A stretch of DNA of 64,000 nt from an uncultured Gemmatimonadales bacterium (GCA_963695185.1 CAVOGH010000003.1:270499-334498); one strand, 5' to 3'; positions 2,672 through 41,306 are shown, counted from the first letter of the stretch. The notes: generated from the letters alone by a model not told the origin. Made by a program: numbers and translations.

Positions 2672-3215
2672 GGACGCTGCCGGGTCCTGGAGCTTCAGCC
2701 GTAGATTCGGGTCCTTCACTTCTGCTACAAGGTCATCAAGGCGTGCCATGTATGCTGCCAGTTCATTATGAGATTCTTTTTGTGTTCCGGTGAAGTGTGG
2801 CGTCCATTCCACTCGCCCGGATGATTCCTAGGACCGTCTCGCAACGGCCCTGGCGGAGGTGACACGGAACTGCAATGCAGCTTGCTGTCTGTGAAAAGGA
2901 TTTGGGCGTGCTTCTATGACGAACCCTCTGCAGGAGTAGGCCTGCTCACGGCGATTTCGGAGCGGTATTCGCGCACAGGTCTTTCTTAGCAGGCTTTCTC
3001 GACTAGATCAACTCAGCGCTGTGTTCAAGAATGTCATTGGGTATCCATCGGAGACCGATAATCCGCGCCTGATCAGATGATAGTAAGCCACGATTGATCG
3101 TAACCTGATGTTGAGCAAGCGGTTCGGCAAGTCACGGATCATCGCCCTTCAGCTTGCGCTGCGACGAGTATCCGGTGAACAGCCCAGCTCTTCCTATCTC
3201 TTATCCCCCCCCTTC

Positions 3216-3246
3216 TTGACCTCCCCAATCTTCGGTGTATCTTCGG
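3216..3246 (+). promoter_or_regulatory. Conserved promoter with direct-repeat operator, copy 1 (TTGACC-N16-TATCTT; ATCTTCGGTGTATCTTCGG)
   Basis: -35 TTGACC at 3216-3221, 16-nt spacer, -10 TATCTT at 3238-3243. ATCTTCGG occurs at 3228-3235 and 3239-3246 (11-bp phasing), and the second unit overlaps the -10. The same architecture recurs at 5427-5457 and 7616-7646. Confidence 0.6.
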
Positions 3247-3289
3247 TTTCACGCACCTGCTCCACCGGACCGACGGCCCCGAGGACCCC

Positions 3290-3451
3290 ATGACCACCAC
3301 CCCCAGACCCCAGCTCCTGCCCACCCGGTACCAGGTCACTAACCCGTTGATCAGCAACCAGATCCGGGTCTGCCCCGAGTGCGCCGGCCCGGTGGCCCAC
3401 AACTCCGGCTGCGTCTCCTGCCGGCAGTGCGGCTGGGGGAAGTGCGGGTAG
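3290..3451 (+). CDS. Small zinc-ribbon protein (53 aa), hypothetical
   Basis: Not in the ORF track (<60 aa). ATG 3290 to TAG 3449-3451 encodes MTTTPRPQLLPTRYQVTNPLISNQIRVCPECAGPVAHNSGCVSCRQCGWGKCG, with CPEC..C..CxxC cysteines. It lies ~45 nt downstream of promoter copy 1. A degenerate homologue of its 5' part lies in the rSAM leader (7660-7740). Confidence 0.45.
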   Translation: MTTTPRPQLLPTRYQVTNPLISNQIRVCPECAGPVAHNSGCVSCRQCGWGKCG

Positions 3452-3453
3452 AC

Positions 3454-3589
3454 GGTTGGGCGATTCGACGACTCGGCGACTTGCGTAAGGTCGGGGTCGG
3501 TGCCGACGAGGAAATGCTGGTACTCTCATCAGGCTGAGCAGCCCGGAGTCCGCGCCGAGCCCCTTCACTTAGCGAATCACCCAACCACC
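3454..3589. repeat. MITE-like palindromic element, subfamily A1 (octamer-array termini)
   Basis: Terminal inverted repeats GGTTGGGCGATTCG / CGAATCACCCAACC. The reverse complement aligns over most of its length with 10190-10336 inside imuB; shared blocks include CTAAGTGAAGGGCTCGGCGCGGA, GAGAGTACCAG, TCGTCGGCACCGA and ACCTTACGC-AGTCGCCGAGTCG. It starts 2 nt after the small-ORF TAG. Confidence 0.75.
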
Positions 3590-3713
3590 TTGCACCCCGA
3601 GCACCCCATGTCCGACTTCGCCAATCCATCCGGTAGCGCTGACGCCCAAGGCCCAGGCCCGCGCCTACACCACCGCGATCCTCGCCGCACTCGGCGACCG
3701 GGACCCGCTCCAG

Positions 3714-4154
3714 GTGCTGCATGAGACGCCCGATGCCCTGCGCCAGCTGGTCGCCGGCAAGAGCCCCGGCTCGCTGGCCCGCGCCGAGGCGCCCGGCAAA
3801 TGGTCGGTGCGCCAGGTGCTGCAGCACCTGGCCGACAGCGAAATCGTCGGTGGGTTCCGCTTCCGCATGGCCATCGCCCAGGACCGGACCACCGTCACCG
3901 GCTACGACCAGGATATCTGGGCCCAGCAGCTCCGCTACCAGGACACCGATCCCGCCGCCGCCATCGCCGACTTCAGCGCCGTCCGCCGCATGAACATGGT
4001 ACTGTTCGATCGTGCCACCCCGGCCGAACTGGCCCGCGCCGTCATCCACGCCGAACGGGGCGAGGAAACCCTGGCCCACATGATCCGGATGTACGCCGGC
4101 CACGACCTGGTGCACCGGCGGCAGATCGAGCGGATCCTGAAGTCGGGCAGCTAG
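3714..4154 (+). CDS. DinB-superfamily (DinB_2-like) metal-dependent protein
   Basis: Motifs ..WSVRQVLQHLADSE.. and C-terminal ..YAGHDLVHRRQIERIL are typical of the DinB four-helix-bundle family. GTG 3714 is the first start after the in-frame TGA 3639-3641. An ATG at 3608 is in another frame, so the 5' end is uncertain (possible indel). Confidence 0.7.
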   Translation: MLHETPDALRQLVAGKSPGSLARAEAPGKWSVRQVLQHLADSEIVGGFRFRMAIAQDRTTVTGYDQDIWAQQLRYQDTDPAAAIADFSAVRRMNMVLFDRATPAELARAVIHAERGEETLAHMIRMYAGHDLVHRRQIERILKSGS

Positions 4155-4375
4155 ACGATTCGGCTCTTCGGTCTCAGGGCGAGGGCGGAGGACGGAGGAC
4201 GGTTACCCACGTGAAGTTGACGTCGCCGGCCGGGCGAGGGCGGAGGACGGTTACCCGGCCGCGTGGGGTTGGCGGGGCATGGCCACGCGGCCGGGAACCG
4301 TTCGATGCCCGAGCCGACTCGCAATAGCTGAATCACCAGGTCATTGAAGTGCCGAATACCCAAAGGAGCTCCACC

Positions 4376-4861
4376 ATGGACCCCCGTCTCGCACCACTCG
4401 CCGAGATGCTCCGGCTCAACGATCGCCTGTTCCACAACTGCCTGGCCGATCTCTCCGACCAGAAGGCCCGGGTACGCCCCACCGACGGCACCAACTGCGC
4501 CGCCTTTGTCGCCGCGCACCTGGTGGACTCCCGCTACTACCTGCTCAACGTCCTGGGCACCAAGGACACCACCCCGCTCACCGGCGCCGAGGGGGGCTTC
4601 AACAACATCAACAAGGTGAGCAGCTATCCCTCGCTCGCCGAGATCCGCACGGCGTGGACCGACGCGGGGAAAGCCCTCGCGCAGCGGCTCGGCAAGCTGA
4701 CCAAGGCCCAGCTCGATGCCCCGCTCGATCCCGGCTTCCCGATCGAGAACAAGAGCATGCTGGGCGTGCTGGTCTTCCTGGTGCAGCACGAGGGCTACCA
4801 CCTGGGCCAGCTGGGCCTGCTCCGCAAGCACGCCGGGCTGCCGGCGATGGCGTATGACTAG
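4376..4861 (+). CDS. DinB-superfamily protein (second paralogue type)
   Basis: AAGGAG RBS at 4362-4367, 8 nt before ATG 4376. Motifs ..AAHLVDSRYYL.. and ..LVQHEGYHLGQLGLL.. are typical of DinB/DUF664-like proteins. Confidence 0.7.
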   Translation: MDPRLAPLAEMLRLNDRLFHNCLADLSDQKARVRPTDGTNCAAFVAAHLVDSRYYLLNVLGTKDTTPLTGAEGGFNNINKVSSYPSLAEIRTAWTDAGKALAQRLGKLTKAQLDAPLDPGFPIENKSMLGVLVFLVQHEGYHLGQLGLLRKHAGLPAMAYD

Positions 4862-4862
4862 G

Positions 4863-4935
4863 CGGTTGGGCGGTTCGTTCTCAGGGCCTTGTCGCGGCTC
4901 GCCTGGGTGGGTCCAATGTCGGGGCGAATTGGGAG
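4863..4935. repeat. Octamer-array element, subfamily B (GGCGGTTGGGCGGTTCG..TCTCAGGGC)
   Basis: Starts directly after the TAG of the DinB gene. It shares the TAG-GCGGTTGGG..TCTCAGGGC layout with 4152-4180 and 14364-14400. It overlaps the 3' end of the convergent HTH gene. Confidence 0.45.
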
Positions 4936-5228
4936 ACCCTCGTCTCACCAAAGGGGAATCGTGCCGTGATGACGAGTTCCCCACCCATCGCCTCGATATA
5001 GCGACGCAGGGTGCTCACGAACACGTCGGAGCGCTGTTCGATCTGGGCAATGCCGGATTGCGTGAGACCACTGCTCTCCGCAAGCTGTTCCTGCGTCAAA
5101 GTGAGTGCGCGCCGTAGCGCCTGCAGGGGCATTTCCTCCAGGAGCTGGCGCGTCAGGATCTCGGAGCGCCCCCGGGACTCGGCGGGCATGCGTGCGACGA
5201 GATCACGAAACTTCTTTGTCTTGGGCAT
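4881..5228 (-). CDS. XRE-family helix-turn-helix protein (antitoxin-like)
   Basis: Central HTH LTQEQLAESSGLTQSGIAQIEQ. Its ATG overlaps the stop of an upstream toxin remnant (TAATG), the classic toxin-antitoxin arrangement. Confidence 0.65.
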   Translation of the reverse strand: MPKTKKFRDLVARMPAESRGRSEILTRQLLEEMPLQALRRALTLTQEQLAESSGLTQSGIAQIEQRSDVFVSTLRRYIEAMGGELVITARFPFGETRVSQFAPTLDPPRRAATRP

Positions 5229-5371
5229 TATATGAGCCCTTCCTTCCGTAGTTCAGCGAGATGCCCGTCAAACAGCTCTTCGGCCCGAGGGACGTTCGCG
5301 TCATACCAGCTATCATCGCCGGTCTTGTTCCCCTGAGCAGAAGGATCGCCATTCGACTTCGTAATATTACG
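5228..5371 (-). pseudogene. RelE/ParE (Gp49-like) toxin remnant, C-terminal third only
   Basis: 47 codons ..GNKTGDDSWYDANVPRAEELFDGHLAELRKEGLI* resemble toxin C-termini of this family. An in-frame TGA lies at 5372-5374, there is no start codon, and the local sequence is AT-richer. Confidence 0.5.
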
Positions 5372-5426
5372 TCAAGCTAATATGTTGCTCCCCGAGAAAG
5401 GCCTCCCCGCTGGTCATCATCCTCTT

Positions 5427-5457
5427 CTTGGCCTCTTTAATCTGCGGTGTATCTTCG
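5427..5457 (+). promoter_or_regulatory. Conserved promoter with direct-repeat operator, copy 2 (TTGGCC-N16-TATCTT; ATCTGCGGTGTATCTTCGG)
   Basis: Same geometry as copy 1: -35 at 5427-5432, -10 at 5449-5454, motif at 5439-5457, then GGTCAC and an AGGAG RBS. Confidence 0.5.
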
Positions 5458-5476
5458 GGTCACAGGAGATGACTTC

Positions 5477-5716
5477 ATGTTCCAACTGACCCGGGATGAG
5501 GCTGCAAACTTGAAGTCACAATTTGTGACCTCAAGTTTGGCGACTCAGGCTGAGGCGGCAATCTTGAAATCACAAACTGTGATCTCAAGTTCTGGCTGGG
5601 GTGGCCAGCGGTTCTCGCCCCGCTATCGGGTTCCGGTGATGAGGGCCGGGGACCCGACCGTTCACCGGCGCTCCCCGGTGAGACGCGCGAGAGCGTCCCT
5701 GGCCTCCGCCACATAG
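5477..5716 (+). pseudogene. ORF6N/KilA-N-like domain protein remnant
   Basis: MFQLTRDEAANLKSQFVTSS..LKSQTVISSSGWGGQRF matches the conserved C-terminal half of ORF6N-domain proteins (FMFQLT.EE..NL[RK]SQ[IF]VTS..WGG.R). The N-terminal half is absent and the LKSQxVxS unit is duplicated. The 3' end runs into the convergent gene. Confidence 0.45.
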
Positions 5717-6681
5717 GGCTGGAGCTCTGGATCGGCGCGCCGCCAGGAATCCACCACATACTGGTAGGACCGGATGGCCGTCTCGCGGTCGCCGAGCCGC
5801 TCGGCGATCCGCCCCTGCTCGAGCCGCGCGAGCACGGCGATCGGGCCGAGAACCATCGTCAGCAGGTGGTCGAGCTGGCTAGCGGCCAGCGTCTCCTGCC
5901 CGCGCGCCGCCAAGAGAGTCGCCTGCTTCAGGACATAGAAGCAGTCGATGCTACTGCACGCGCTGGTGGGCACCGCGCCGAATTGGCGGAGGGCCTCAGT
6001 GGTGTCACCGAGGGCGAGCGCCAGATACGCCGCCGACGCCTGCTCGAGGTAACCGGCCCGGAGCCGGCGCACCGGATCTCCGGCCCGCGCGCCGGCATCC
6101 CGCATGCGGCGACCAAAGAGCGCGAGCGCCGCGGTGTCTTGCTGCATTGTCCACCACCCGAGGCCCTTGAGGCTGCGGGAGGAGCCGTCGCCAAAAGCGA
6201 AACCGGGCTGCAGTGAGGGGGCGAAAGCGCGGGCCGCCTCGTCCCGAGGTATCGCGCGGAGCAGCGCCAGGTCACGGAAGGGGTCCTGGAACCAGGACCA
6301 GGGCGAGAGGGTGGGATCGGCGAGGAGCGCCCGGTTGGTGCGATAGGCCTCCGCCAGATGGCCCCGTCTCGCGAGCGCCATCGCCACGAACTGCAGGCGC
6401 ATCAGGGAATCCACCACCCAGGGAGTGGATTCCCCCTCGCGCATCCGCCGCGCCGCCAGCCGCCGGAACAGCATCACGGCGGTTTCCGCAGAGTCCGGAA
6501 TGTAGATGAATACCTCGATCGCCGCGGTGAACAGCACGCCTGCCGCGGCCGCATCGAGTTGTCCGGCCAGGTCCTTCTCTCGCCGGTCCTCCGGAGTCAG
6601 CAGGAGGCGGCTGGTGAGTCCCAGGGCGGAGCTGGTCACGCCGGGCAGGGCCAGGCGAGTTACCGCTCGCGCGTAGGGCAA
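5662..6681 (-). CDS. Helical-repeat (TPR-like) protein, hypothetical
   Basis: 339-aa Ala/Leu-rich all-helical ORF. It resembles the TPR-like C-terminal regions of multidomain regulators, but no catalytic domain is seen. Its 5' end abuts the pseudogene at 6700, so it may be truncated. Confidence 0.45.
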   Translation of the reverse strand: MPYARAVTRLALPGVTSSALGLTSRLLLTPEDRREKDLAGQLDAAAAGVLFTAAIEVFIYIPDSAETAVMLFRRLAARRMREGESTPWVVDSLMRLQFVAMALARRGHLAEAYRTNRALLADPTLSPWSWFQDPFRDLALLRAIPRDEAARAFAPSLQPGFAFGDGSSRSLKGLGWWTMQQDTAALALFGRRMRDAGARAGDPVRRLRAGYLEQASAAYLALALGDTTEALRQFGAVPTSACSSIDCFYVLKQATLLAARGQETLAASQLDHLLTMVLGPIAVLARLEQGRIAERLGDRETAIRSYQYVVDSWRRADPELQPYVAEARDALARLTGERR

Positions 6682-6699
6682 GGCGCGTTCCGGCCCGCC

Positions 6700-7604
6700 C
6701 AGCTGCGCCGGAGGCCCGGGCGGTCATTGACGCGGGCAGGAGCCTGGTGGACGTCTCGGATGAACTCTCCGCAACGCTCGAGCTGCTCGACCTCCACGCC
6801 GACGCCGCTCGCGCCGGCATCACCATCGCGGTCGGCCTCGGCGTCGGCCCGGGCATCACCAACATCCTCGCGCGGTACGGGGCGGACCGCCGGGACCGGG
6901 TCGAGGAGGTGCACACCTCCTGGATCAGGCGCGCCTCGGACATGGGCGGACGGGCCCTGGCCATGCACCTGCTCTACTCGAACGCCCACCGCGCGTTCGA
7001 CTTCGCGGACGCCGCGATGCGTGAAGTCCGGCCCTTCGAGGATGGCCGGGAGACCATCGACGACCCGGTCCTGGGTCCCGTCGAGGTGACCCAGATCGGC
7101 CACTCGAACCCTCGCCCTGTCGCGCTACCTCCCGGGACATCCGGCATGCGGACGACGAGGCCACGTATCCTCCCGATGCAGGTGAACGACCTCCTCAAGG
7201 AGCTGGGGCGCGTTGCCCGGTCGGGGCATCCGGTCATGGTCGAAGGACGGCCGGTGGACCGGATGGCCTTCGCGGCCAGCTCTGTGCAGCAGAGCGCCGC
7301 GCCTGGCGGGAGAATCGCAGACCGGCGCGCTGCGCACCGAGGTGCGGGGGGAACTGGCCGGCCGGCCGGTGCGCCTCGTCGATGCCTCCGCGGCCGGATC
7401 GGCATCGGGACCGGAGTGCCGGCCTCGATCGGCGCGATGCTGCTCGCCATCGGCAAGATCGACAAGCCCGGCGTCTGGCCGCCGGAAGCCTGCATCGACC
7501 TCGGAGTGGTTCCTGTCCGCCATCGAGCGGCGGCACATCGGCAATATCGAGGAACAGGTGTTCGACTGGGACCGGCCGGGGAGCCCAGCGCCGTGTCGAG
7601 ATAG
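6700..7604 (+). pseudogene. Saccharopine dehydrogenase-family paralogue, 5'-truncated and multiply frameshifted
   Basis: Homologous to residues ~135-420 of the 237-1394 gene. Compare VDVSDELSATLELLD..GITNILARYGADR.. with VDVSDDFAATLELLD..GVTNILARYGADR... Homologous segments alternate between two frames (e.g. ESQTGALRTEVRGELAGRPVRLV and EWFLSAIERRHIGNIEEQVFDW lie in the 7213 frame). The Rossmann N-terminus is missing. Confidence 0.8.
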
Positions 7605-7615
7605 ACCAGCCATCC

Positions 7616-7646
7616 TTGCCCTCCCTGATCTTCGGTATATCTTCGG
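7616..7646 (+). promoter_or_regulatory. Conserved promoter with direct-repeat operator, copy 3 (TTGCCC-N16-TATCTT; ATCTTCGGTATATCTTCGG)
   Basis: -35 at 7616-7621, -10 at 7638-7643, motif at 7628-7646. It sits ~150 nt upstream of the rSAM-imuB genes. The downstream leader is homologous to the copy-1 leader and small ORF. Confidence 0.6.
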
Positions 7647-7795
7647 GTCACACGCCACCCGAGGACCCGATGCCGCCTCCCCCAACTCCATCTCGTCCAG
7701 GCCCAGCATCAGGCCGCTAACTCGTTGATCGGCAACCAGATCCATACGTGTACGCGGGGTCGGCAGGACGCCGACTCCACCGAGGCCCGGCCCAC

Positions 7796-8884
7796 ATGAC
7801 AAGGCCCGCCCAGCTCCCCCTGCTCGAGGCCCCGGCCCAGGCCCCGCTGCCGGTGCTCGACACCCGTGCCCGCGGCGCCTCGTTCCACGAGATCCCGGTC
7901 AAGGCGATCCTCAACTCCCCCGCCTCCACCGGCATGGGGTTCTGGTCGCTCAATCCGTACGTGGGCTGCGAGTTCGGCTGCACCTACTGCTACGCTCGTG
8001 AGACCCATAAGTGGGTAGTCGAGCGAGAGACGGCGAAAGGGACGGCTTCCGGCGCGGAGGGTAGCCCTGAGATCGAGTCGCCGAGTCGCCGAGTCGCCGA
8101 GTCGCCCAGCGACGCCTTCGAACGCCGCATCCTGGTCAAGACCTCCGCCGCGGCGGTGCTCAAACGCACCCTCTTTCCCGCCAAGCTCGACGGCTGCACC
8201 CTGGTCATCGGCACCGCCACCGATCCCTACCAGCCCGCCGAACGGCAGTTCCGCCTGACTCGGCAGATCCTCGAGGCGCTGCTCAGCTGGAAGGGGCTGG
8301 CGCTGGGGATCATCACCAAGTCGCCGCTCATCATCCGCGACATCGACCTGCTGGTGCAGCTCAAGGAACGGCACGACCTGTCGGTCAACATCTCCATCGC
8401 CTCCACCGACGCCGCCCTGCTCCGGCGCATCGAGGCCCGCTCGCCGGCGCCCCACGCCCGGCTCCGGGCCCTGTCCCGGCTCACCGATCAAGGCATTCAC
8501 GCGGGGCTGCTCATCGCCCCGGTCCTCCCCGGCATCACCGACAGCCGGGAATCACTGGCCGCCCTCATGGCGGCGGGGAAGGCAGCGGGCGCCCGCTACG
8601 CGGTCGGGTCGGCGCTCCGGCTCGGACCCGCAACCCGGTCCCGCTTCCTTCCTCACCTTGCCCACGAATTCCCGGAGCTGGCCGGCCGCTACGCGCGGCG
8701 CTACGAAAACCGCCAGATGCCGGGACGCGACTATACCGAGGCGCTCTCCGCCCGGATCCGCTCGCTGCAGGCGGAGTACGGCTTCCCCATCCCCGACAGC
8801 CGCCACCGCGAACGGCTGCTCAAGGGCCAGGCGCGGGAAGACGCGGTGCCCGAGGCGGCGGCGCAGTGGTCGCTGGGGTTGTGA
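7796..8884 (+). CDS. Radical SAM protein (SplB/COG1533-like, DNA-repair-photolyase family)
   Basis: CEFGCTYC (CxxxCxxC) cluster motif near the N-terminus, followed by ..ILVKTSAAAVLKR.. and ..ITKSPLIIRDIDLL.. typical of this family. ATG 7796 was chosen (MTRPAQLPLL). It carries an in-frame repeat insertion at 8014-8110. Confidence 0.75.
   Translation: MTRPAQLPLLEAPAQAPLPVLDTRARGASFHEIPVKAILNSPASTGMGFWSLNPYVGCEFGCTYCYARETHKWVVERETAKGTASGAEGSPEIESPSRRVAESPSDAFERRILVKTSAAAVLKRTLFPAKLDGCTLVIGTATDPYQPAERQFRLTRQILEALLSWKGLALGIITKSPLIIRDIDLLVQLKERHDLSVNISIASTDAALLRRIEARSPAPHARLRALSRLTDQGIHAGLLIAPVLPGITDSRESLAALMAAGKAAGARYAVGSALRLGPATRSRFLPHLAHEFPELAGRYARRYENRQMPGRDYTEALSARIRSLQAEYGFPIPDSRHRERLLKGQAREDAVPEAAAQWSLGL
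8014..8110. repeat. Octamer-array element, subfamily A2, in-frame inside the rSAM gene
   Basis: CCGGCGCGGAGGGTAGCCCTGAGATCGAGTCGCCGAGTCGCCGAGTCGCCGAGTCGCCC aligns with 15110-15166 in dnaE2. It encodes ..SPEIESPSRRVAESPSRRVAESPS.. in a loop right after the Fe-S motif. Confidence 0.7.
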
Positions 8885-9022
8885 GCCCCGCCCTGGAGCT
8901 ACAGGCTGCGAAGCCGTGGGCCCCTCCGGGGGCGACCGTTTTGGCAAGGCTGCCTGATATGTGCCGCCAGCCAACGGCAGCGCCCCCGTCGGGGCCCACC
9001 GGCTCCGCAGCCCGCACACACC

Positions 9023-10426
9023 ATGCAGCCACGCCACGTCCTGTTCGTTGACCCGCCGGCCTTCTGCACCACCCTCGAAGGCCTGGTCGCGCCCGCGCTC
9101 CGGGATCGGCCCCTCGTCGTCGCCGCCCCCGGCGCCGACCGCGCCACCGTGCTCGCCCTCTCCCCCGAAGCCCGCGCCGCCGGGATCACCCCCGGCATGG
9201 CGGTGAACCAGGCCAGGAAACGCTGCCCCGATCTCATCGTCCGCCCCCCCAACCCCCGGCTCTACGCCCGCGCCTCCCGCGCCCTGCACCAGATCCTGGC
9301 CCGCTACGCGCCCATCATCGAACCCCACGGCTGGGGCCACGCCTTCCTCGACGTGACCGGCACCGAACGGCTGCTGGGAAAATCGGTCGATATCGCCTGG
9401 AAGATCCACCAGGAATCGCGCGAGCGGCTGCACCTGCCGCTCGCCGTCGGCGTCGCCCAGAACAAGCTGGTGAGTCAGGCGGCGTCGGAGGTGGTCAAGG
9501 GACGACTCGGCGACTCGGCGACTCGGCGACTCGATCTGCTCGAGGTGACTCCGGGGTCCGAAGCAACGTTCCTCGCACCGGAAAGCGTGGCACTGCTCCC
9601 CGACCTCGAGCCCCGCATGCGGGAGCGGCTGGACGACTACCAGCTCGACATCATCGGAGAGATCCAGGCCATCACCGACGACGAGCTGGCCCGGGTGTTC
9701 GGGCTCCCCGGCCGCACCCTCGGCGCCCACGCCCGCGGCATCGACCCCCGGCCGGTGCTGCCGGCGGCGGTCAAGGCGGAGTTCCGCGTCACCCACACCC
9801 TCGGCAACGACAGCAACGACATCGCCCTGCTGCACCGGGTGCTCCGCCACCTGACCGAACGGCTGGGCGCCCGGCTCCGCGCCCGCCACCTCACCGCCCG
9901 ACGGCTCACGGTGCAGATCGCCTACGTGGACTACGCCACCGCCCGTCGCAGCCTGGCGCTGGCCCCCGCCGCCCTCGACGTGGAGCTGCTCGACGCCGCC
10001 CGCCGAGGCCTGGCCCTGGCGCAGCAGCGCACCGTGGCGCTCCGGGCACTGAGCGTGACGGTGGATCGGTTCGTGGAGGAGGATTGTCAGTTGGAGTTGT
10101 TCGGCGGCTCGGCGGCTCGATGGTTCGGCGACTCGGCGACTCGATGGTTCGGCGACTCGGCGACTCGATGGTTCGGCGACTCGGCGACTCGGCGACTCGG
10201 CGACTCGCTAAGTGAAGGGCTCGGCGCGGACCATAGGCTTGCTCTCTCCGAGGAGAGTACCAGTGCTTCATCGTCGGCACCGAACCTCACCTTACGCGAG
10301 TCGCCGAGTCGCCGAGTCGCCGAGCCGCCCAACAACGCGTCCATGCGCCACATCGCCCTCCAGCGTGCCCTCGACCGCATCCGCACCCGCTGGGGGGCCC
10401 GCACCATCGGGGCGGCGACGAGATAG
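9023..10426 (+). CDS. imuB: Y-family DNA polymerase homologue lacking catalytic carboxylates (ImuB-like)
   Basis: Y-family fold motifs are present (VLFVDPPAFCTTLE; IEPHGWGHAFLDVTG; AVGVAQNKLVSQAAS). The position of the SxDEAxLD catalytic Asp-Glu reads GH. QLELF and a C-terminal LDRIRTRWG tail are present. It follows the rSAM gene and lies in the same locus as dnaE2. Two in-frame repeat insertions. Confidence 0.8.
   Translation: MQPRHVLFVDPPAFCTTLEGLVAPALRDRPLVVAAPGADRATVLALSPEARAAGITPGMAVNQARKRCPDLIVRPPNPRLYARASRALHQILARYAPIIEPHGWGHAFLDVTGTERLLGKSVDIAWKIHQESRERLHLPLAVGVAQNKLVSQAASEVVKGRLGDSATRRLDLLEVTPGSEATFLAPESVALLPDLEPRMRERLDDYQLDIIGEIQAITDDELARVFGLPGRTLGAHARGIDPRPVLPAAVKAEFRVTHTLGNDSNDIALLHRVLRHLTERLGARLRARHLTARRLTVQIAYVDYATARRSLALAPAALDVELLDAARRGLALAQQRTVALRALSVTVDRFVEEDCQLELFGGSAARWFGDSATRWFGDSATRWFGDSATRRLGDSLSEGLGADHRLALSEESTSASSSAPNLTLRESPSRRVAEPPNNASMRHIALQRALDRIRTRWGARTIGAATR
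9500..9535. repeat. Short GGCGACTC octamer array, in-frame in imuB
   Basis: GACGACTCGGCGACTCGGCGACTCGGCGACTCGAT encodes ..GRLGDSATRRLD.. between conserved Y-family blocks. Confidence 0.65.
10096..10336. repeat. MITE-like palindromic element, subfamily A1, in-frame in the imuB 3' region, with 3 x 24-bp tandem units
   Basis: TIRs GTTGTTCGGCGGCTCGGCGGCTCG / CGAGTCGCCGAGCCGCCCAACAAC. TCGGCGACTCGATGGTTCGGCGAC is repeated 3x (SATRWFGD x3). The core matches 3454-3589 in reverse complement. The reading frame stays open and the native C-terminus resumes after it. Confidence 0.8.
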
Positions 10427-10472
10427 GACCGATCAGGAACCCGGCTTCACGGCGACACCCGCTCCGCCGGAG

Positions 10473-10862
10473 TCACGCCTCGGCATCGAGACCGTCGGGG
10501 TCCTGCCCCCTCACATACAGGACGGTTGGCCTCGGCTTGACGGTCGGGGACATGATCTCGAGGTACGCCTGTGGATTGATGCCCAGCTCCTGCTCCATCG
10601 GCCCGAAGAGCTTGGCGAAGCCCGGGCTGTCCTCCGGGATCGCAATGACCCCGTACTTGAGGTTCAGGAGCTCGACCAGCAGCACCACCTGGGTGCGAGT
10701 GCCCAGGTCCAGCTTGTACGCCGCAACCTTGCTGACCACCACCCAGGCCACCGCGCGGGTACGATTGCGCACGGTGAGGGTAAAGCCGGTCGCGTCGGCG
10801 GAGATCGTCGGCAGCGGAGGGTTCGGGCCTCGGCCCAGCAGCCGCTCAAGCCATGGCATCAC
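10473..10862 (-). CDS. Hypothetical protein
   Basis: 129-aa ORF with ordinary composition on the strand opposite imuB. No family recognised. Confidence 0.4.
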   Translation of the reverse strand: MMPWLERLLGRGPNPPLPTISADATGFTLTVRNRTRAVAWVVVSKVAAYKLDLGTRTQVVLLVELLNLKYGVIAIPEDSPGFAKLFGPMEQELGINPQAYLEIMSPTVKPRPTVLYVRGQDPDGLDAEA

Positions 10863-10910
10863 GGGAGCCCCCGGGGGTCATCGGTGTCGCACCGCCGCAA
10901 CCGGAATGCC

Positions 10911-11282
10911 TCACACGTGCTGGTCCACCAGGATGGGGTTGCCGTCGGGGTCCAGCGCGGTGAAGCTGGCGGGCCCCGTGGTGGTCTCGTCGGCCTCGGT
11001 GGTGAGCTTCACGCCCTTCGCCTTGAGCTGCCGCTGCAGCTCACGGACGTCGGTGAAGCCGGGGACCAGCTTCGCGTCCTGGTCCCAGCCGGGATTGAAG
11101 GTCAGGATGTTCTTGTCGAACATCCCCTGGAAGAGGCCGATGATATGGTCGCCGTTCTTGAGGATCAGCCACTTCTGGGCGGCATTGCCGCCGAAGACAG
11201 TGAAACCGAACTTCTCGTAGAAGGCCTTGGACGCCGCGATATCCTTGACGGCCAGGCTGATGGAAAACGCGCCGAGTTGCAT
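10911..11282 (-). CDS. VOC/glyoxalase-family protein
   Basis: Internal ATG at 11282 gives a 123-aa protein, [40 protein letters not shown], typical of the glyoxalase/bleomycin-resistance fold. The longer track ORF (to 12083) is an Arg/Pro-rich extension. Confidence 0.7.
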
Positions 11283-11335
11283 GTCGAGTCTCCGGGTGAA
11301 AAGAAGAGGTGCCCGCCTGATCGAGGGCGGGCCGG

Positions 11336-11872
11336 CTACGTGGCGGCGAGGACCTCGGGCTTTCGCTTCCGGCTCAGCAGCCCCGCCGACACCAGCGCAA
11401 ACAGCAGTCCCACCGGCAGCGGCTCGAGAAACGTCAGCGAGATGTTCACCAGCGGATTCTTGTACATCTCCGCGAACTCCGCCATCTCCTGCTTCTTCTC
11501 GGCGAGCTGCGCCTCCGTGGCGCCGGACGCTGCCTCCTTCTCCAGGGCGTAGGCCGAGTATTTCTCCAGGTAGTCGGGAGCGATCTTGCGGTAGACCACC
11601 TGCCAGGTAGCCACGTAACAGACGCACCCGATCAGCATGATCAGGCCACCCACCTGGAAGGCTCGGCCGAACGACACGTTGCCACCCGCCACGTTGTCGC
11701 GGTAGCTCTTCACCCCGACATACACCATCAGGAAGGCGATCACCATCGTGGTGTAGCCGATGATGAGGCCCTTGTCGAAGCCGATCTGGTCGTGGAACGG
11801 GATGGTGAGGAGCATCATCGCCGACAGGATGGCGCCGGCAATCAGTCCGAAGGTCAGCACGATCTTCCGCAT
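11336..11872 (-). CDS. DUF4199-like membrane protein
   Basis: 178 aa with four TM helices and the central SYRDN..GG.(I/V)SF motif typical of DUF4199. Confidence 0.6.
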
Positions 11873-12096
11873 GGCAGCTCCCAGGAGGTTGAGGACGGCC
11901 GATACTACTGCCGGAACGGGCTCCGCGCGTCACCCGAAAGGGTGATTCGGGGGAATTGGCAGGGAAATCATACGAACGGGGGACACAAAACGACCGCAGT
12001 GACCGCCGCCAGGGCTCGGCGCCCGAGACCGGGAGAGGGCGCCGGAGAAGGGGAAAACGGAAACGAGTGGCAGCACGAGGCATCGCAGGCGACCGA

Positions 12097-12186
12097 GACC
12101 GGGGGAGGGTCGGAGGGCGCGTAGGTGCGAGACGGGGACTCGCCCGGCCACCCGCACCTCCAGCGCCTGGAGACCCTCCTCCGGGC
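12097..12186. repeat. Long imperfect palindrome, family C (intergenic copy)
   Basis: GACCGGGGGAGGGTCGGAGGGCGCGTAGGTGCGAGACGG..CCCGCACCTCCAGCGCCTGGAGACCCTCC. The reverse complement of 17190-17265 inside dnaE2 is near-identical over ~75 bp. Confidence 0.75.
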
Positions 12187-12219
12187 GAGGGCGCCGGAGA
12201 AGAGAGGGGAGGACGACCC

Positions 12220-12666
12220 TCAGGGGATGAGCCGCAGTTCCTTGCCCAGCTGCACCGCCTGCGTCCGCCGCCTGGCGCCCAGTTTGTCGAACACTCGGCT
12301 CGAATGGGTCTTGACCGTGTTTTCGCTCACCGACACCCGCTCGGCGATCTCCTTGTTGCTCAGGCCTTCGGCGATCAGCGCCAGGATCTCCAGCTCGCGT
12401 GGCGTGATGCCGAGCGACTCCAGCCTGGCCTCGTCCCGGACAAAGGTGGCCGGCGCCGGCACCAGCACCTCCCGCACCACCACCGTTTCGGCGCGCCGAG
12501 TGAGGCGGAGGCCCAGCCAGATGCCCAGCGCGGCGAACACCGCGGCCACCAGCCCGCCGTAGATCTCCACCGAGTGCTGCACCACCAGCCAGCGGTACTC
12601 GATGAGCCGGAGCCCGGCGATCAGCACCCCGGCGAGGAGTCCGAAGAGGAGCACATGTCGGCGCAT
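12220..12666 (-). CDS. Membrane-anchored LuxR-family HTH transcriptional regulator
   Basis: ATG at 12666 ([19 protein letters not shown]..). Two to three TM helices are followed by the C-terminal LuxR/Ger[48 protein letters not shown]. Confidence 0.75.
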
Positions 12667-12712
12667 GCCCAAGTCTAAGAGCACCTGGCGGAGGGCGGAA
12701 CGGCGCGGCCCG

Positions 12713-13693
12713 CTACCATGTGAGGACGATTTTCCCGAACACCTCGTCGCGCTCCATGACGCCGTGGGCCTCGGCGACGTCGGCAAAGGGCGCGGTGGCG
12801 CCGACGACGGGGCGGAGGCGCCGCGTGCCGCCATCGCCGAATCCCGGCAGCACCTGCGCGCTGAAGGCCGCCACCAGCTCGATGCGCTCTTCCAGCGTCC
12901 GGGTCCGCATCACGCTGCCGATGACCTCCAGCCGCTTGCGGAGAATCGGTTCGAGGCTCAGCTCGGCGGTCGGGCCCTGGAGAAAACCGAGCAGCACCAG
13001 CCGGCCGCGCGGGGCCAGCGCCGCGAGGTTGCCGGCGAAGGCGGGGCCGCCCAGGACGTCGATGATCACATCGAATTCGGCGACTCGGCGACTCGGCGAC
13101 TCGGCGACTCGGCTGCCGAGTTCGAATACTTCGTCGAGCCCGAGCTCCCGGGCGCGTTCGAGCTTGGCGGGCGTCCGGGAGGTGCCCGCCACCGTGGCGC
13201 CGAGCCACTTGGCGAGCTGCACCGCCGCGGTGCCGACGCCGCTGCCGACGGCATGAATCAGCACCCGCTCGCCTGACTTGAGCCTGCCGCGGGTGACCAG
13301 CGCATCCCATGCCGTCAAGAACACCTCGGGGATGGCGGCGGCCTCCGCCAGCTCCATGCCCGGCGGCACCGCCAGCGCCTCGTCCTCGTGCACCACCACG
13401 TATTCGGCGTGGGCGCCGCCGCCCACCAGGCCCATGACCCGGTCCCTGGCGCGCCACCGGGTCACGCCCGACCCCGTCTTCTTCACCACACCCGCATACT
13501 CGAGCCCCGGAATGTCCGCCGGCCAGCCGGATGGCGCGGGATAGCGGCCCTTTCGCTGCAGGATGTCGGCGCGATTCAGGCCCGCGGCCTCAACCCGCAC
13601 CAGGATCTGGTGCGCTGCCGCCTTCGGGGTCGGGACTTCACGGAGTTGCAGGACTTCGGGACCGCCCGCGGCGGTGTTCACAATGGCGCGCAT
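12713..13693 (-). CDS. NADPH:quinone oxidoreductase (zeta-crystallin-like MDR family)
   Basis: MRAIV..GGPEVLQL.EVP.P..GQ(H)ILVRVEAAGLNRADILQRKGRYP..; GSGVGTAAVQLAK nucleotide-binding motif; C-terminal FGKIVLTW. Contains an in-frame octamer array. Confidence 0.8.
   Translation of the reverse strand: MRAIVNTAAGGPEVLQLREVPTPKAAAHQILVRVEAAGLNRADILQRKGRYPAPSGWPADIPGLEYAGVVKKTGSGVTRWRARDRVMGLVGGGAHAEYVVVHEDEALAVPPGMELAEAAAIPEVFLTAWDALVTRGRLKSGERVLIHAVGSGVGTAAVQLAKWLGATVAGTSRTPAKLERARELGLDEVFELGSRVAESPSRRVAEFDVIIDVLGGPAFAGNLAALAPRGRLVLLGFLQGPTAELSLEPILRKRLEVIGSVMRTRTLEERIELVAAFSAQVLPGFGDGGTRRLRPVVGATAPFADVAEAHGVMERDEVFGKIVLTW
13071..13126. repeat. Short hairpin-flanked GGCGACTC array, in-frame in the quinone oxidoreductase gene
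   Basis: TCGAATTCGG-(CGACTCGG)x4-CTGCCGAGTTCGAA encodes ..GSRVAESPSRRVAEF.. on the minus strand, between conserved blocks. Confidence 0.65.
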
Positions 13694-13754
13694 GGGCTGG
13701 TAAGGTATCGCCGGACGCCGGACTTGCGCCCTGCGGGCCCAGGCCGTAGCATAC

Positions 13755-13773
13755 CCGAAGAAATACCGAAGCT
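13755..13773 (-). promoter_or_regulatory. Direct-repeat operator motif, copy 4 (AGCTTCGGTATTTCTTCGG on the minus strand)
   Basis: One mismatch per half-site relative to copies 1-3. It is centred in the 138-bp divergent region between the qor-like gene (start 13693) and tag-dnaE2 (start 13832). No copy of the TTGNCC -35 element is present. Confidence 0.5.
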
Positions 13774-13831
13774 AGAAGGGCTGCCGGGGACCCAGACCGG
13801 CCACACCCCTCACCCTCCATCCTGCGCCCGC

Positions 13832-14363
13832 ATGTCCAGCTACTGCGATATCGCCCCCGGGCACGAATGGCACGGCCCCTACCACGACCGGGAGTACGGC
13901 GTCCCGCTCCGGGAGGACGACGAGCTGTTCGAGCGGCTGATCCTGGAGATCAACCAGGCCGGCCTGTCGTGGCTCACCATCCTCAAGAAAGCGGGAGGGC
14001 TTCCGCCGAGCCTATCACGGCTTCGAGGTGGCGCGGGTGGCGCGCTACGGGGCCCGGGACCGGGCTCGGCTGCTCAAGGACGCCGGGATCATCCGCAACC
14101 GGCTCAAGGTGGAGGCGGCGGTGGCCAACGCGAAGACCGTTCTCTCGCTCCGGAAGAGCCACGGCAGCTTTCATGGCTGGATCGAGGCGCATCACCCGCG
14201 GAGCAAGGGGGAGTGGGTGAAGCTGTTCAAGGGGACGTTCCGGTTCACCGGCGGGGAGATCGTGGGCGAGTTCCTGATGAGCATCGGGGTGCTGCCGGGC
14301 GCGCACCGGGAGTCGTGCCCGGCGTACGCGCGGATCCGGCGGCTCAAGCCGATGTGGATGTAG
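13832..14363 (+). CDS. tag: DNA-3-methyladenine glycosylase I (Tag), interrupted by a 1-nt insertion in this assembly
   Basis: MSSYCDIAPGHEWHGPYHDREYGVP..ELFERLILEINQAGLSWLTILKK, then a shift to ..FEVARVARYGARDRARLLKDAGIIRNRLKVEAAVANA..FTGGEIVGEFLMSIG. Removing one A from AAA 13988-13990 restores ILKKREGFRRAYHGFEV. Confidence 0.8.
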
Positions 14364-14369
14364 GCGTAT

Positions 14370-14448
14370 AGGCGGTTGGGTGGTTGGATCTCAAGGCGAC
14401 CATCCGCGCGGAACACTGAGTTCACACACCAACCGTCTAACCGCCTGT
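14370..14448. repeat. MITE-like element, subfamily B, between tag and dnaE2
   Basis: TIRs AGGCGGTTGGGTGGTTGG / CCAACCGTCTAACCGCCT, with a central TCTCAAGGCGACC core. It starts a few nt after the tag TAG and ends 6 nt before the dnaE2 ATG. Confidence 0.65.
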
Positions 14449-14454
14449 CCGCCC

Positions 14455-17400
14455 ATGTTCACCCACCTCCACGTTCACAGCTGGTTCTCCATGGGAGAGG
14501 GTGTCTCGAGTCCCGAGGCGCTGGCCTCGGCCGCGGTGCGGCGGGGGTTCGGCGCGCTGGCCTGCACCGACACCAACGGGGTGTACGGCGCGGTGGAGTT
14601 CCAGCAGGCGGCCGAGGCCCACGGGCTCAAGCCGATCCTCGGCGCGCACCTGGTGCACGGGACCGAGGAGGCGGTGGCGCTGGCGACAGACGAGCGGGGC
14701 TGGGGCGCGCTCTGCCGGGCGATCACGGCGATTCATTGGGTGGAGGGACGGACGGGTAGACGGACGGACGGGCGGGCGAACGGAGCGACGGGCCGCCGGA
14801 CCGTCCGACCGTCCGACTACCTCTCCACCCTCCTCGCCGCCGACCGCGACGGCCTGCTGCTCCTCTCCCGCGATGCGACGCTGCTGGAGCGGGTGGCCGA
14901 TCTCTCGGGGACGCGGGATCTCTACGCCGAACTCCGGCCCGGCAAGGAGCGCCACGCGGTGGGCCGGGCGGCCCGACGGCTGGGGATTTCGCCGGTGGTG
15001 ACCAACGCGGTGATGTTCGCCAACCCCGAGGAGCACGCGCTGCACCGGCTCCGGGTGGCGATCGGCGACTCGGCGACTCGGCGACTCGGCGATTCGTTCG
15101 CAAGGCCGGGGTCCGGCGCGGAGGGTTACGGTGAGATCGAGGCGCCGAAGCGCCGAGTCGCCGAGCCGACCTCCTGGCTCCGCCCCGGCGCCGACCTCGC
15201 CCGCCACTTCCCCGACTGTCCCGAGGCGATCGGCCGCACCATGGAGCTGGCGGAGCGGTGCGGCTACCGCATTCCCATCGGCCAGCGCACCGTGGCGCCG
15301 AGGATCGCGGCGGCGGAGGAGTCGTTCGCGCGGCTCCGGGCGCTGGCGTACGAGGGCGCGGCCCGGCGCTACGGCACGGTGGCGCCGCTCACCCGGGACC
15401 GGATCGAGCACGAGCTGGCGATCATCGCCCAGAAGAACTTCGCCGACTACTTCCTGGTGGTGCACGATATCGTCCGCCACGGCCCCACCCACTGCGGCCG
15501 GGGCTCGGTGGCCAACTCCATCGTGAGCTACTGTCTGGGCATCACCCACGTGGATCCGCTGGGCGCGGGGCTCCTGTTCGAGCGGTTCCTCAATCCCGAG
15601 CGGAAGGACCCGCCCGACATCGACCTCGACTTTCCCTGGGACGAGCGCGACCAGGTGCTGGCCTGGGTGTTCCAGAAGTATCCCCTGCCCCGCGCGGCGA
15701 TGGTGGCCAACCACAACTGCTTCCGGCTCCGGGGCGCGCTCCGGGAGGTGGCCAAGGTGCACGGCCGCCCGCCGGGAGAGATCCGCGAACTCACCCGCCG
15801 CTTCCCCTGGTTCATGGCGGATGAATCCATGGAAGAGGTCATCGCGCACCACCCCAACTTCAAGGGCCTGGAATTGCCGGCGGTCTGGCAGGACCTGATG
15901 CGGCTGGCGCAGCCGCTGGTGGGGGTGCCCCGGCACCTGTCGCTGCATCCCGGCGGAGTGGTGATCGTGCCGACGGCGCTGACCGACTACGTCCCCATCG
16001 AGCCGGCGGCCAAGCAGCTGGACGGCCATCCCGACCTCACCGTGCCGGTGATCCAGTTCGAGAAGGACGGCACCGAGGACGCGGGGCTGGTGAAGATCGA
16101 CCTGCTGGGGAACCGCTCGCTGGCGGTGATCCGTGACGCGATCGCCGCGGTGGCGGTCAACACCGGCCGGCAGATCGACTACACCTCCGACGATCCCGAC
16201 GACGACGAGGCCACGCACGCGCTCTTCCGCACCGGCCAGACCATGGGCGTCTTCTACACCGAGAGCCCGGCCTCGCGGCTCCTGTGCGCCAAGTCCCGGG
16301 CCGACACCTTCGAGCTGCTGGTGCTCAACACCAGCATCATCCGGCCCGCCTCCAACCGCTACATCCGGGTGTACCTCGAACGGCTGCACGGCGCGCCCTA
16401 CGCGCCGCTCGACCCGTCGCTCCGGGATACCCTCGCCGAGACCTACGGGGTGATGGTCTACCAGGAGGACGTGGTCAATGTGTGCGCCACCTTTGCGGGG
16501 ATGTCGCTCGCCGCGGGCGACGGGCTCAGGAAGGCGCTCTCCAAGAAGCGGCCGGTCAAGGCGCTGGCGTCGTACGTGGAGGATTTCTTCGCCGGCGCCG
16601 CCCGGCTGGGCCGGGACCCGGAGATCGCCAGGCAGGTGTGGGAGATGGTCATGTCCTTTGCGGGCTACAGCTTCTGCAAGGGGCATTCGTGTTCCTATAT
16701 CAAGGTGGCGCAGCACTCCTGCTATCTCCGGGCCCACTACCCGGCGGAGTTCATGGCCGCGGTGCTGGCCAACGGCGGCGGGTTCTATCATCCCTTTGCG
16801 TATGTCTCCGAGGCGATGCGCATGGGGCTCACGGTGCGCCCGCCGGACGTGAATGCCAGCGAGTTCCGGACGACCGGCCGGGGGCGGGAGGTGCGGATCG
16901 GGTTCCAGTTCATCAAGGGGTTGTCGGGGGAGGCGGTCAGGCGGTTGGACGAGGCGACTCGCGGATTCCGGGATCTGGCTCACTTCCGAGTGGAGACCGG
17001 CATCGGGCGGGAGGACCTGCGGCTGCTCATCAAGGTGGGTGCGCTGGACTCGATTGCCCGGGGGATGACCCGGCCGATGCTGCTGTGGGCGGTGGACGCG
17101 GAGTCCCACGCGCCGCCGGCGCCGGCGCCGCTGCTCGACGCTTCGGAGTCGAGTGCTCCGAGCCGTCGAGGCGGGGAAGGGTCTCCGGGCGCTGGAGGTG
17201 CGGGAGCCCGGGTGGGTTCCCGTCTCGCACCTACGCGCCCTCCGACCCTCCCCCGCCTCGACGGCTCGCCTGCCCTCGTTTCTCCGCGGGCGGCAATCCA
17301 ACCGCCCAGCCGCCAAACCGCCCAACCGCCTCACGAATCACCCAATCGCCCAATCGCCCAATCGCCTGCACCTCCCCCCCTCCGCGACTACGACACCGCC

Positions 17401-39584: not shown

Positions 39585-39766
39585 ATGGCCTCCCATGGTG
39601 CCGAGGCTGGCGCTTGGGTCCTTGCCGGACGGTGCTCTCCCAGTACGCCACATCGGACCGTTCGCGCTGATTCGCGGGATTCCCCTTGCCCCCGTGGAAG
39701 CTGCATATGTCTATGTGGCAACAGATACTCACCTTCCTTACAACTTCCTCGCAATCGGAGGGCAGC

Positions 39767-40279
39767 ATGGCAGCGGATTTCTTCTTGGGCGAGTCACTCG
39801 TAGGTGAGGGCAATGAAATCGCCCACATCGATCTGATTATCGGCAGCAAGAGCGGTCACGCCGGCGCGGCCTTCTGCAACGCGCTCACGAACAACAAGGA
39901 CGGCTTCACCACGCTGCTCGCGGTGGTGGCGCCGAACCTGCCGGCCAAGCCGGACACCATCATGTTCAACAAGGTGACCATCAAGGGCGCCACGCAGGCG
40001 GTGCAGATGTTCGGCCCGGCCCAGGCGGCCGTGGCCCGCGCCGTCGTGGACAGCGTGGCCTCCGGGGTCATCCCGAAGGACAAGGCCAACGACTGGTGCG
40101 TGATGGTCGGGGTGTTCATCCACTGGCAGGCCGCAGACGACAAGAAGATCTATCAGTTCAACTACCAGGCGACCAAGGAATCCATCGAGCGGGCGCTCAA
40201 GGGCCTGCCGACGGTGGATTCGGTGGTCAGTGGCTCCAAGACCGCGCGTCACCCGTTCTCGGGCGTGGATAACGCCTGA
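39767..40279 (+). CDS. fae: Formaldehyde-activating enzyme (5,6,7,8-tetrahydromethanopterin hydro-lyase)
   Basis: GGAG RBS at 39757-39760, ATG 39767. [71 protein letters not shown] and HPF are near-colinear with Methylorubrum Fae as I recall it. Confidence 0.9.
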
Positions 40280-40300
40280 GTCCCGGCCCACTCGCGGGAG

Positions 40301-40332
40301 ACAGAGGGGCGGGGCGATCCCCGCCCCTCTGT
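40301..40332 (+). terminator. Strong GC hairpin downstream of fae
   Basis: ACAGAGGGGCGGGG-CGAT-CCCCGCCCCTCTGT, a perfect 14-bp stem 22 nt after the fae stop. No clear U-tract. Confidence 0.6.
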
Positions 40333-40400
40333 CATGTCAGGCTCTCACGCCGTGACGGGCGGCTCCGGCCGCCCGGACGGACCCTCAGGGACTTGCCGAT

Positions 40401-41270: not shown

Positions 41271-41306
41271 GCCATTCCGGATCACCGCCCCGGGCTGACA
41301 GCCCTC

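Follow-up and report, generated by a model that had tools for sequence, protein, structure and literature searches.

We analyzed a 64,000-nucleotide stretch of DNA from an uncultured Gemmatimonadales bacterium (GCA_963695185.1, CAVOGH010000003.1:270499-334498; hereafter the window) and find that it carries four copies of a direct repeat, ATCTTCGG-N3-ATCTTCGG, which is very probably a conserved regulatory operator of an SOS-type regulon across the Gemmatimonadota. The best explanation overall, to which we assign a probability of about 0.6, is that the repeat is the promoter-fused operator of the Gemmatimonadota DNA-damage (SOS-type) regulon. The conservation of the repeat, its promoter architecture and the content of the genes behind it were observed directly and are described first.

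A scan of the window with the pattern ATCTTCGGNNNATCTTCGG, permitting up to three mismatches, returned exactly four matches, the number given in an initial annotation of the same DNA; 0.34 copies are expected, and none of 100 shuffled sequences reached four (0/100). Copies 1 (ATCTTCGGTGTATCTTCGG, 3228-3246) and 3 (ATCTTCGGTATATCTTCGG, 7628-7646) are on the plus strand and have no mismatches, copy 2 (ATCTGCGGTGTATCTTCGG, plus strand) has one, and copy 4 (AGCTTCGGTATTTCTTCGG, 13755-13773, minus strand), which lies in the spacer between a quinone reductase gene and tag, has two mismatches and a perfect TTCGG-N6-TTCGG core. The positions first reported stand for copies 1, 3 and 4; that of copy 2 was one base off and is corrected here from 5439-5457 to 5440-5458. 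No further TTCGG-N6-TTCGG core (up to one mismatch, T-rich spacer) was found in the window, and neither a regulator gene nor an additional operator site was seen in the remainder of it. Copies 1 and 3 are paralogues within a duplicated segment (3209-3365 versus 7609-7743, matching at 75-82%), as had been noticed, and the duplication includes the 5′ end of a small zinc (Zn)-ribbon open reading frame (ORF). Copy 2 has just ~38 nt of promoter in common with copies 1 and 3. A site identical to copy 1, in identical context, is present in a relative, an uncultured Gemmatimonadaceae bacterium (locus L061) that is 86-96% identical to the window across the region, and copy 3 has an orthologous site in a second relative (locus L156). 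Its identity to L061 places the window in the Gemmatimonadaceae.

The repeat is strongly enriched in the Gemmatimonadota. An exact scan for ATCTKCGGTNTATCTTCGG in one genome per species (185,579 species, 596 Gb) identified 69 loci, 39 of them with Gemmatimonadota, Gemmatimonadales, Gemmatimonadaceae or Longimicrobiales in the title. By our own arithmetic ~35 chance matches are expected in 596 Gb at uniform base composition, versus ~30 matches outside the Gemmatimonadota, so that the latter are accounted for. At ~68% G+C the per-position probability is ~2e-12, and 39 matches in one small phylum represent an enrichment of orders of magnitude. A metagenome scan contributed 117 further loci; roughly half are high-GC and share the promoter context. 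The plasmid collection contained no relative of the region, no motif match in a Gemmatimonadota plasmid and no ImuB relative. The flanks of the operators are unrelated between genomes, and the sites precede orthologous gene families in dozens of genomes of different orders. In 786 kb of high-GC flanking DNA the TTCGG-N6-TTCGG core occurs only at these operators and at copy 4 of the window.

Three groups of matches were rejected as operators: those in low-GC Bacteroidales, which are 11-bp tandem arrays in unrelated context; those in Chryseolinea, which fall in coding sequence; and those in viruses, which are probably coding. The arrays consist of three to six tandem units of TATCTTCGGTA in Prevotellaceae/Bacteroidales and other low-GC contigs (L001, L004, L043, L062, L085, L088, L100, L107, L124, L129, L135, L167, L170, L180, L183 and L185), and at six of these loci the array adjoins a conserved, function-unassigned protein of ~265 aa starting MAR..DDLLGIEG, in a context unrelated to DNA repair.

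Copies 1 to 3 lie inside a TTGNCC-N16-TATCTT promoter, as originally described, with 6 nt separating the upstream hexamer from the repeat and 16 nt separating it from TATCTT. The −35 elements, all on the plus strand, are TTGACC at 3216-3221 for copy 1, TTGGCC at 5428-5433 for copy 2 and TTGCCC at 7616-7621 for copy 3, and bases 3238-3243 (TATCTT) of copy 1 form the −10. A generic σ70 scan of positions 3000-14500 (11.5 kb) found TTGACC-16-TATCTT, the copy-1 promoter, as its sole match; the −35 elements of copies 2 and 3 were assigned by sequence reading and alignment. Among 93 unique high-GC sites, positions −13 to −10 from the repeat are occupied by T (68/93), T (60/93), G (57/93) and C (58/93), giving the consensus TTGCNC-N17-TATCTT, with positions +19 to +21 T-rich. 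Both copy 1 and the 93-site alignment thus have −35 and −10 hexamers 16-18 nt apart, the spacing of a σ70-type promoter. The complete module reads TTGC(N)C, then 6 or 7 nt, then ATCTTCGG TNT ATCTTCGG, such that the first half-site occupies the spacer and the second doubles as the −10. The operator therefore overlaps the core promoter, the repeat covering spacer and −10 (TTGCNC-N16/17-TATCTT), and the proposal of a promoter-embedded, lineage-specific cis-element is borne out both in the window and in other Gemmatimonadota genomes.

The positions of the start codons provide independent support for TATCTT as a real −10. In at least 12 dnaE2/imuB genes the start codon lies 2-6 nt past the repeat, which is 5-9 nt past TATCTT, and many of the operator-driven transcripts appear from these distances to be leaderless. 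About 10 of 100 unique high-GC sites have no −35 and look like chance matches. The repeat has no dyad symmetry and is a direct repeat of two half-sites 11 bp apart; at the high-GC sites there are always exactly two in-phase units, consistent with binding by a dimer.

We then took a census of the genes downstream of the 100 unique high-GC sites. DnaE2 follows 21 sites, plus 4 resolved later, an ImuB-like protein follows 16, plus ~6 truncated cases, a SplB-type radical SAM (rSAM) protein with or without the Zn-ribbon ORF follows ~12, and an ImuA-like protein (RecA fold) follows 4. A DinB_2 protein, a glyoxalase, an SDR protein, an ABC transporter and a gene that diverges from a LigD phosphoesterase occur once each. 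At five independent loci (L055, L073, L109, L118 and L154) the full promoter-operator module stands before an RND efflux operon encoding a membrane-fusion protein and/or an AcrB-type pump, suggesting that efflux is part of the damage regulon in some Gemmatimonadota. The expectation that SOS-type genes lie downstream is met by the window and by dozens of other Gemmatimonadota genomes, and the sites stand upstream of canonical SOS genes (imuA-imuB-dnaE2, splB and Y-family polymerases) across related genomes.

Several operator-controlled units have additional features. At four loci recX (RecX_HTH1/2 domains) follows imuB in the operator-controlled operon and is not beside recA (L037, 4530-5243; L042, 5809-6573; L072; L098). 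In one lineage a conserved leader with hairpin potential (tttccgcgytc...gagggagc...ggctcgg) lies between operator and dnaE2, 60-90 nt past the operator (L017, L089, L091, L173, L175, L176 and L177), and has no match in Rfam. An ORF of 74-76 aa (MKFSSPPAAHCFRFLRQLRADGRTNMYGAVPYLMKTF...) without a Pfam match begins 3 nt past the operator in L029 and L092 and is apparently leaderless.

A second, weaker direct pair, (A/T)TTCGG-TNTTT-(G/A)TTCGG, is present in 11 of 16 imuB promoters and in none of 21 dnaE2 promoters. In the imuB promoters it lies 9-13 nt downstream of the first pair, and hence downstream of the start site; three rSAM promoters have a second pair in inverted orientation, and in one imuA promoter the second pair is located upstream. 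These secondary sites, (A/T)TTCGG-N6-(G/A)TTCGG, read (A/T)TTC-N7-GTTC, with GTTC in the 3′ half only. As the secondary pairs are without promoter features, the repeat is read by a DNA-binding protein and not by a sigma factor. The distance between pairs is variable and the spacing inside a pair is always 11 bp, which argues that a dimer is the unit that binds, contacting two half-sites on the same helix face.

From these observations we infer repression, induction by DNA damage and the identity of the repressor. In the mechanism that we propose, a repressor dimer would bind the two TTCGG half-sites, 11 bp apart on one helix face, covering about −27 to −5 and blocking RNA polymerase by occlusion. 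Promoters that need tighter control would carry a second dimer site, as a direct pair in imuB and as an inverted pair in some rSAM promoters. Removal of the repressor after DNA damage would allow transcription of the imuA-like, imuB-like, dnaE2, Zn-ribbon/SplB-type rSAM, DinB_2 and some RND efflux genes. In the window, copy 1 would control the Zn-ribbon ORF and two DinB_2 genes, copy 3 the rSAM and imuB-like genes, and copy 4 probably tag and a DnaE paralogue.

LexA is the most likely repressor, on odds that we place a little above even, because the content of the regulon and the 11-bp geometry match known LexA systems. Alphaproteobacterial LexA binds a direct repeat, GTTC-N7-GTTC, with 11-bp spacing (PMC8565304, PMC4951493), and this is the only well-known direct-repeat LexA box. 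The repeat described here shares with it the direct orientation, the 7-nt spacer and 11-bp period, the TTC in the half-site and the location at imuA-imuB-dnaE2-type promoters; it differs in that the primary half-site is CTTCGG, not GTTC, with conserved CGG and an ATC 5′ flank, in that operator and −10 are fused in a fixed register, and in that it belongs to another phylum and is not seen at lexA or recA among the ~100 unique exact sites. In the Verrucomicrobia, the LexA core regulon comprises lexA, splB (rSAM, COG1533) and imuA-imuB-dnaE2 under the motif TGTTC-N4-GAACA, and splB is LexA-regulated in several phyla (PMC4951493). That regulon resembles the present one in its SplB-type rSAM, mutagenesis cassette and Y-family polymerases and in the tandem operators on tightly controlled promoters, but its motif is palindromic and its lexA carries sites, of which we found none here. 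The Deinococcus RDRM/DdrO operator is a 17-bp palindrome (TTATGT-type), unlike the direct repeat without dyad symmetry found here. The initial annotation did not recognize the full motif as a published LexA box, and we agree: full-text literature searches found no description of it, nor of a Gemmatimonadota SOS regulon or LexA motif, and a 2021 tally of 17 LexA motifs does not include it (PMC8565304).

Several observations weigh against a LexA-bound operator of a DNA-damage regulon. A tblastn search with LexA of E. coli and B. subtilis and RecA of E. coli against ~1.1 Mb from 188 loci returned only ImuA-like matches, and a LexA profile search matched only Bacillus and Mycobacterium LexA and no Gemmatimonadota protein. 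None of the ~100 unique exact sites precedes lexA, recA, uvrA, ruvAB or ssb, in a set selected by an 18-base pattern that favors the strongest promoter-fused sites. The primary half-sites are CTTC, not GTTC, and their fixed register to the −35 would also be expected of an activator or a promoter-specificity element. RND and ABC transporters, glyoxalase and SDR proteins are not classic SOS genes. Apart from the secondary sites, all sites were chosen by the exact 18-base pattern, so the conservation of the ATC flank is partly circular. Copy 4 has no counterpart in the closest syntenic relative (L156), in which the interval from the quinone reductase gene to tag contains no site. As to lexA and recA, these genes usually carry weaker operators, which in this lineage would resemble the secondary sites; their absence is weak evidence against LexA because the exact pattern selects the strongest operators.

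We searched for a regulator linked to the sites by clustering neighboring genes; the only recurring ones encode histidine kinases and sigma-54 activators, about as often as expected by chance. An OsmC-like gene was rejected as the linked regulator, being merely syntenic with dnaE2 in one lineage, as was the Zn-ribbon ORF, which resembles the C-terminal tail of ribonucleotide reductase. Candidates for autoregulated small genes, a 62-aa LuxR-type helix-turn-helix (HTH) gene (L138) and the 74-76 aa ORF (L029/L092), occur only once or twice.

The same operator and regulon could be served by a damage-responsive repressor other than LexA that took control of the translesion-synthesis genes, candidates being a CI-like S24 'non-canonical LexA' and a winged-helix protein of the OmpR/PhoB type, an alternative that we consider unlikely, if clearly the strongest of those weighed here. 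OmpR/PhoB-type proteins typically bind 11-bp-phased direct repeats. The lack of lexA and recA at the ~100 consensus sites and in their flanks is what such a repressor would predict, and it would also accommodate members that are unusual for LexA (RND efflux at five loci, ABC transporter, glyoxalase and SDR) and the site that drives the stand-alone LuxR-type HTH gene in L138. There is precedent in the Bacteroidetes, where the SOS regulon is run by non-LexA S24 repressors (PMC8565304). That system is likewise a phylum-specific SOS-type regulon of the FCB superphylum and was likewise found by comparative promoter analysis of translesion polymerase genes (PMC8565304), but its motifs (GGA-N5-TCC as well as CTAA-N5-TTAG) are palindromes of unrelated sequence with an adjacent regulator gene, whereas the sites here are direct repeats with no S24 gene near them and no candidate regulator gene recurring beside them. 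The geometry and half-site remain closest to the known LexA box, and the exact-pattern search was biased against the weaker operators of lexA and recA. A smaller but appreciable probability attaches to the reading in which a non-LexA repressor runs the mutasome (imuA/imuB/dnaE2), SplB-type rSAM, DinB_2 and efflux genes by way of an 11-bp-phased direct repeat that also serves as the −10; the FCB superphylum would then have two SOS-like systems independent of LexA.

It is improbable that the repeat is instead mainly a positive promoter element, either a site from which a PafBC/RecA-NDp-like activator recruits RNA polymerase at fixed register or a sequence that an alternative sigma factor recognizes. 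The strictly fixed distance to the TTGC −35 and the inclusion of TATCTT in the motif fit such an element. PafBC is an activator that acts at a mycobacterial RecA-independent promoter, in which the motif TGTCGGTG-N8-TANNNT replaces the −35, and it controls imuA′/imuB/dnaE2 among DNA-damage genes, so that a regulator motif fused to the −10 at fixed spacing in front of DNA-damage genes is common to both systems. The Gemmatimonadota promoters, in contrast, already possess an ordinary −35 (TTGCNC) with a spacer of 16-17 nt, leaving an activator unneeded; the repeat overlaps the −10 and differs in sequence from the RecA-NDp consensus; the secondary pairs are inverted or located downstream of the start, arrangements in which neither an activator nor a sigma factor would act; and a sigma factor does not require two identical half-sites.

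A dispersed repeat or duplicated promoter cassette without a dedicated regulator, its gene association incidental, is largely refuted: the duplication of copies 1 and 3 and the rearrangements and miniature inverted-repeat transposable element (MITE)-like octamer arrays of the region speak for it, but neither a longer shared unit nor scatter regardless of genes was found, the flanks of the sites before orthologous genes are unrelated across genomes, the core is absent elsewhere in the 786 kb, and the secondary-site architecture is specific to gene class.

The promoter-fused operator, and the genes behind it, provide a concrete element and a first regulon draft for DNA damage in the Gemmatimonadota, comprising error-prone polymerases, the rSAM protein with its Zn-ribbon partner, DinB_2 proteins and RND efflux. 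This phylum is a major one in soil and desert and is known to tolerate desiccation and radiation. If LexA binds the repeat, this would be a further LexA motif and the second well-defined one that is a direct repeat, and it would bear on the evolution of LexA specificity, since the secondary sites resemble intermediate forms on the way to GTTC-N7-GTTC; otherwise the regulator would be a new SOS-like one. The combination of operator and −10 in a single 19-bp module, often in front of leaderless genes, is an unusual fusion and a compact arrangement that could find further use as a damage-inducible promoter.

In the window, the first gene past copy 1 is the Zn-ribbon ORF (53 aa, 3290-3451, plus strand), which is similar to the Zn-finger tail at the C-terminus of B12-dependent ribonucleotide reductase and whose homologues follow the operator in L060, L061, L094, L095, L126 and L156. 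It is followed on the same strand by a DinB_2 superfamily gene of the copy-1 operon (3714-4154; PF12867, E = 1.7e-20), with the same order in L061, and by a second DinB_2 or mycothiol-S-transferase-like gene identified by domain match (4349-4861). Copy 3 precedes a decayed Zn-ribbon ORF, a SplB-type radical SAM gene of the Rv2578c/PA0069 family (7748-8884, plus strand, start probably the ATG at 7796) and a gene for a Y-family polymerase homologue (9023-10426, plus strand). The latter had been called imuB-like, correctly: the protein keeps D8, and G-H replaces the catalytic D103-E104 of E. coli DinB, which makes it an ImuB-like protein of the inactive type.

Copy 2 had been assigned to a mobile-element remnant, a description that is incomplete. 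Comparison with L061 and L156 identifies it as the ancestral rSAM/imuB-like promoter, orthologous to the promoter that drives rSAM/imuB-like or imuB-like genes in these relatives, and it is separated from the rSAM/imuB-like genes of the window by an insertion of ~2.1 kb (5459-7627) that carries copy 3. The insertion consists of a duplicate of a saccharopine dehydrogenase fragment (498-1367 versus 6708-7575, ~80%) fused to an operator-promoter copy, together with a 339-aa minus-strand ORF. An ORF6N-like remnant or leader (5447-5716, plus strand; PF10543, weak and below the cut-off) extends past copy 2 and is also found after site 2 of L061. An XRE-type, antitoxin-like HTH gene (4881-5228, minus strand) has a palindrome, CGTAATATTACG, just upstream at 5360-5371, and this gene-palindrome module directly precedes copy 2 as well as its counterpart in L156 and L061.

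Copy 4 is the weakest site. It had been linked to tag and dnaE2, and a polymerase gene is indeed present (14380-17802, plus strand, syntenic in L030 and L156), but by homology the product is a divergent DnaE-family, ImuC-like paralogue that shares 31% identity with the DnaE2 usual in Gemmatimonadota. Copy 4 lacks a −35 in the register of copies 1 to 3 and has mismatches in its flanks, and its own strand points to the gene for a PIG3-type NAD(P)H quinone oxidoreductase (12713-13693, minus strand), divergent from tag, and not to tag/dnaE. A possible plus-strand tag/dnaE promoter, TTGCGC-N17-TAGCAT (13724-13752), was read by eye; it fits TTGCNC-N17, was missed by the generic σ70 scan and ends 3 nt before copy 4, which, if this putative promoter is used, could block the tag/dnaE start. 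L030 has a consensus site past the quinone reductase gene's 3′ end, directed towards tag/dnaE. The tag/dnaE module is associated with the motif at a position that is not conserved, so we regard copy 4 as probable rather than secure. The tag gene itself (3-methyladenine glycosylase I, 13832-14371, plus strand) is apparently frameshifted, its first frame matching Tag models at residues 14-54 only and its C-terminal part lying in another frame (ORF 14028-14363). At the nucleotide level it shares 77.7% identity with the tag gene of a Xanthomonas sacchari plasmid.

The rSAM, ImuB-like, quinone reductase and DnaE coding sequences contain MITE-like tandem octamers, (CGACTCGG)n, often paired with an inverted array, (CGAGTCGC)n. 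The arrays are located at 8040-8107, 9503-9536, 10099-10330, 13053-13114 and 15054-15171 and leave the reading frames intact. A two-unit octamer probe gave 21 matches where 0.02 are expected, and only one of the 21 falls outside 8-15.2 kb. The arrays add peptides, for example GDSATRRLGDS, that the L061 and L030 orthologues lack or have in different form. Farther along the window, from 39686-41984 onward to ~60000, we recognized by eye proteins resembling those of one-carbon metabolism, among them a formaldehyde-activating-enzyme-like ORF (39686-40279) and formylmethanofuran-dehydrogenase-like ORFs.

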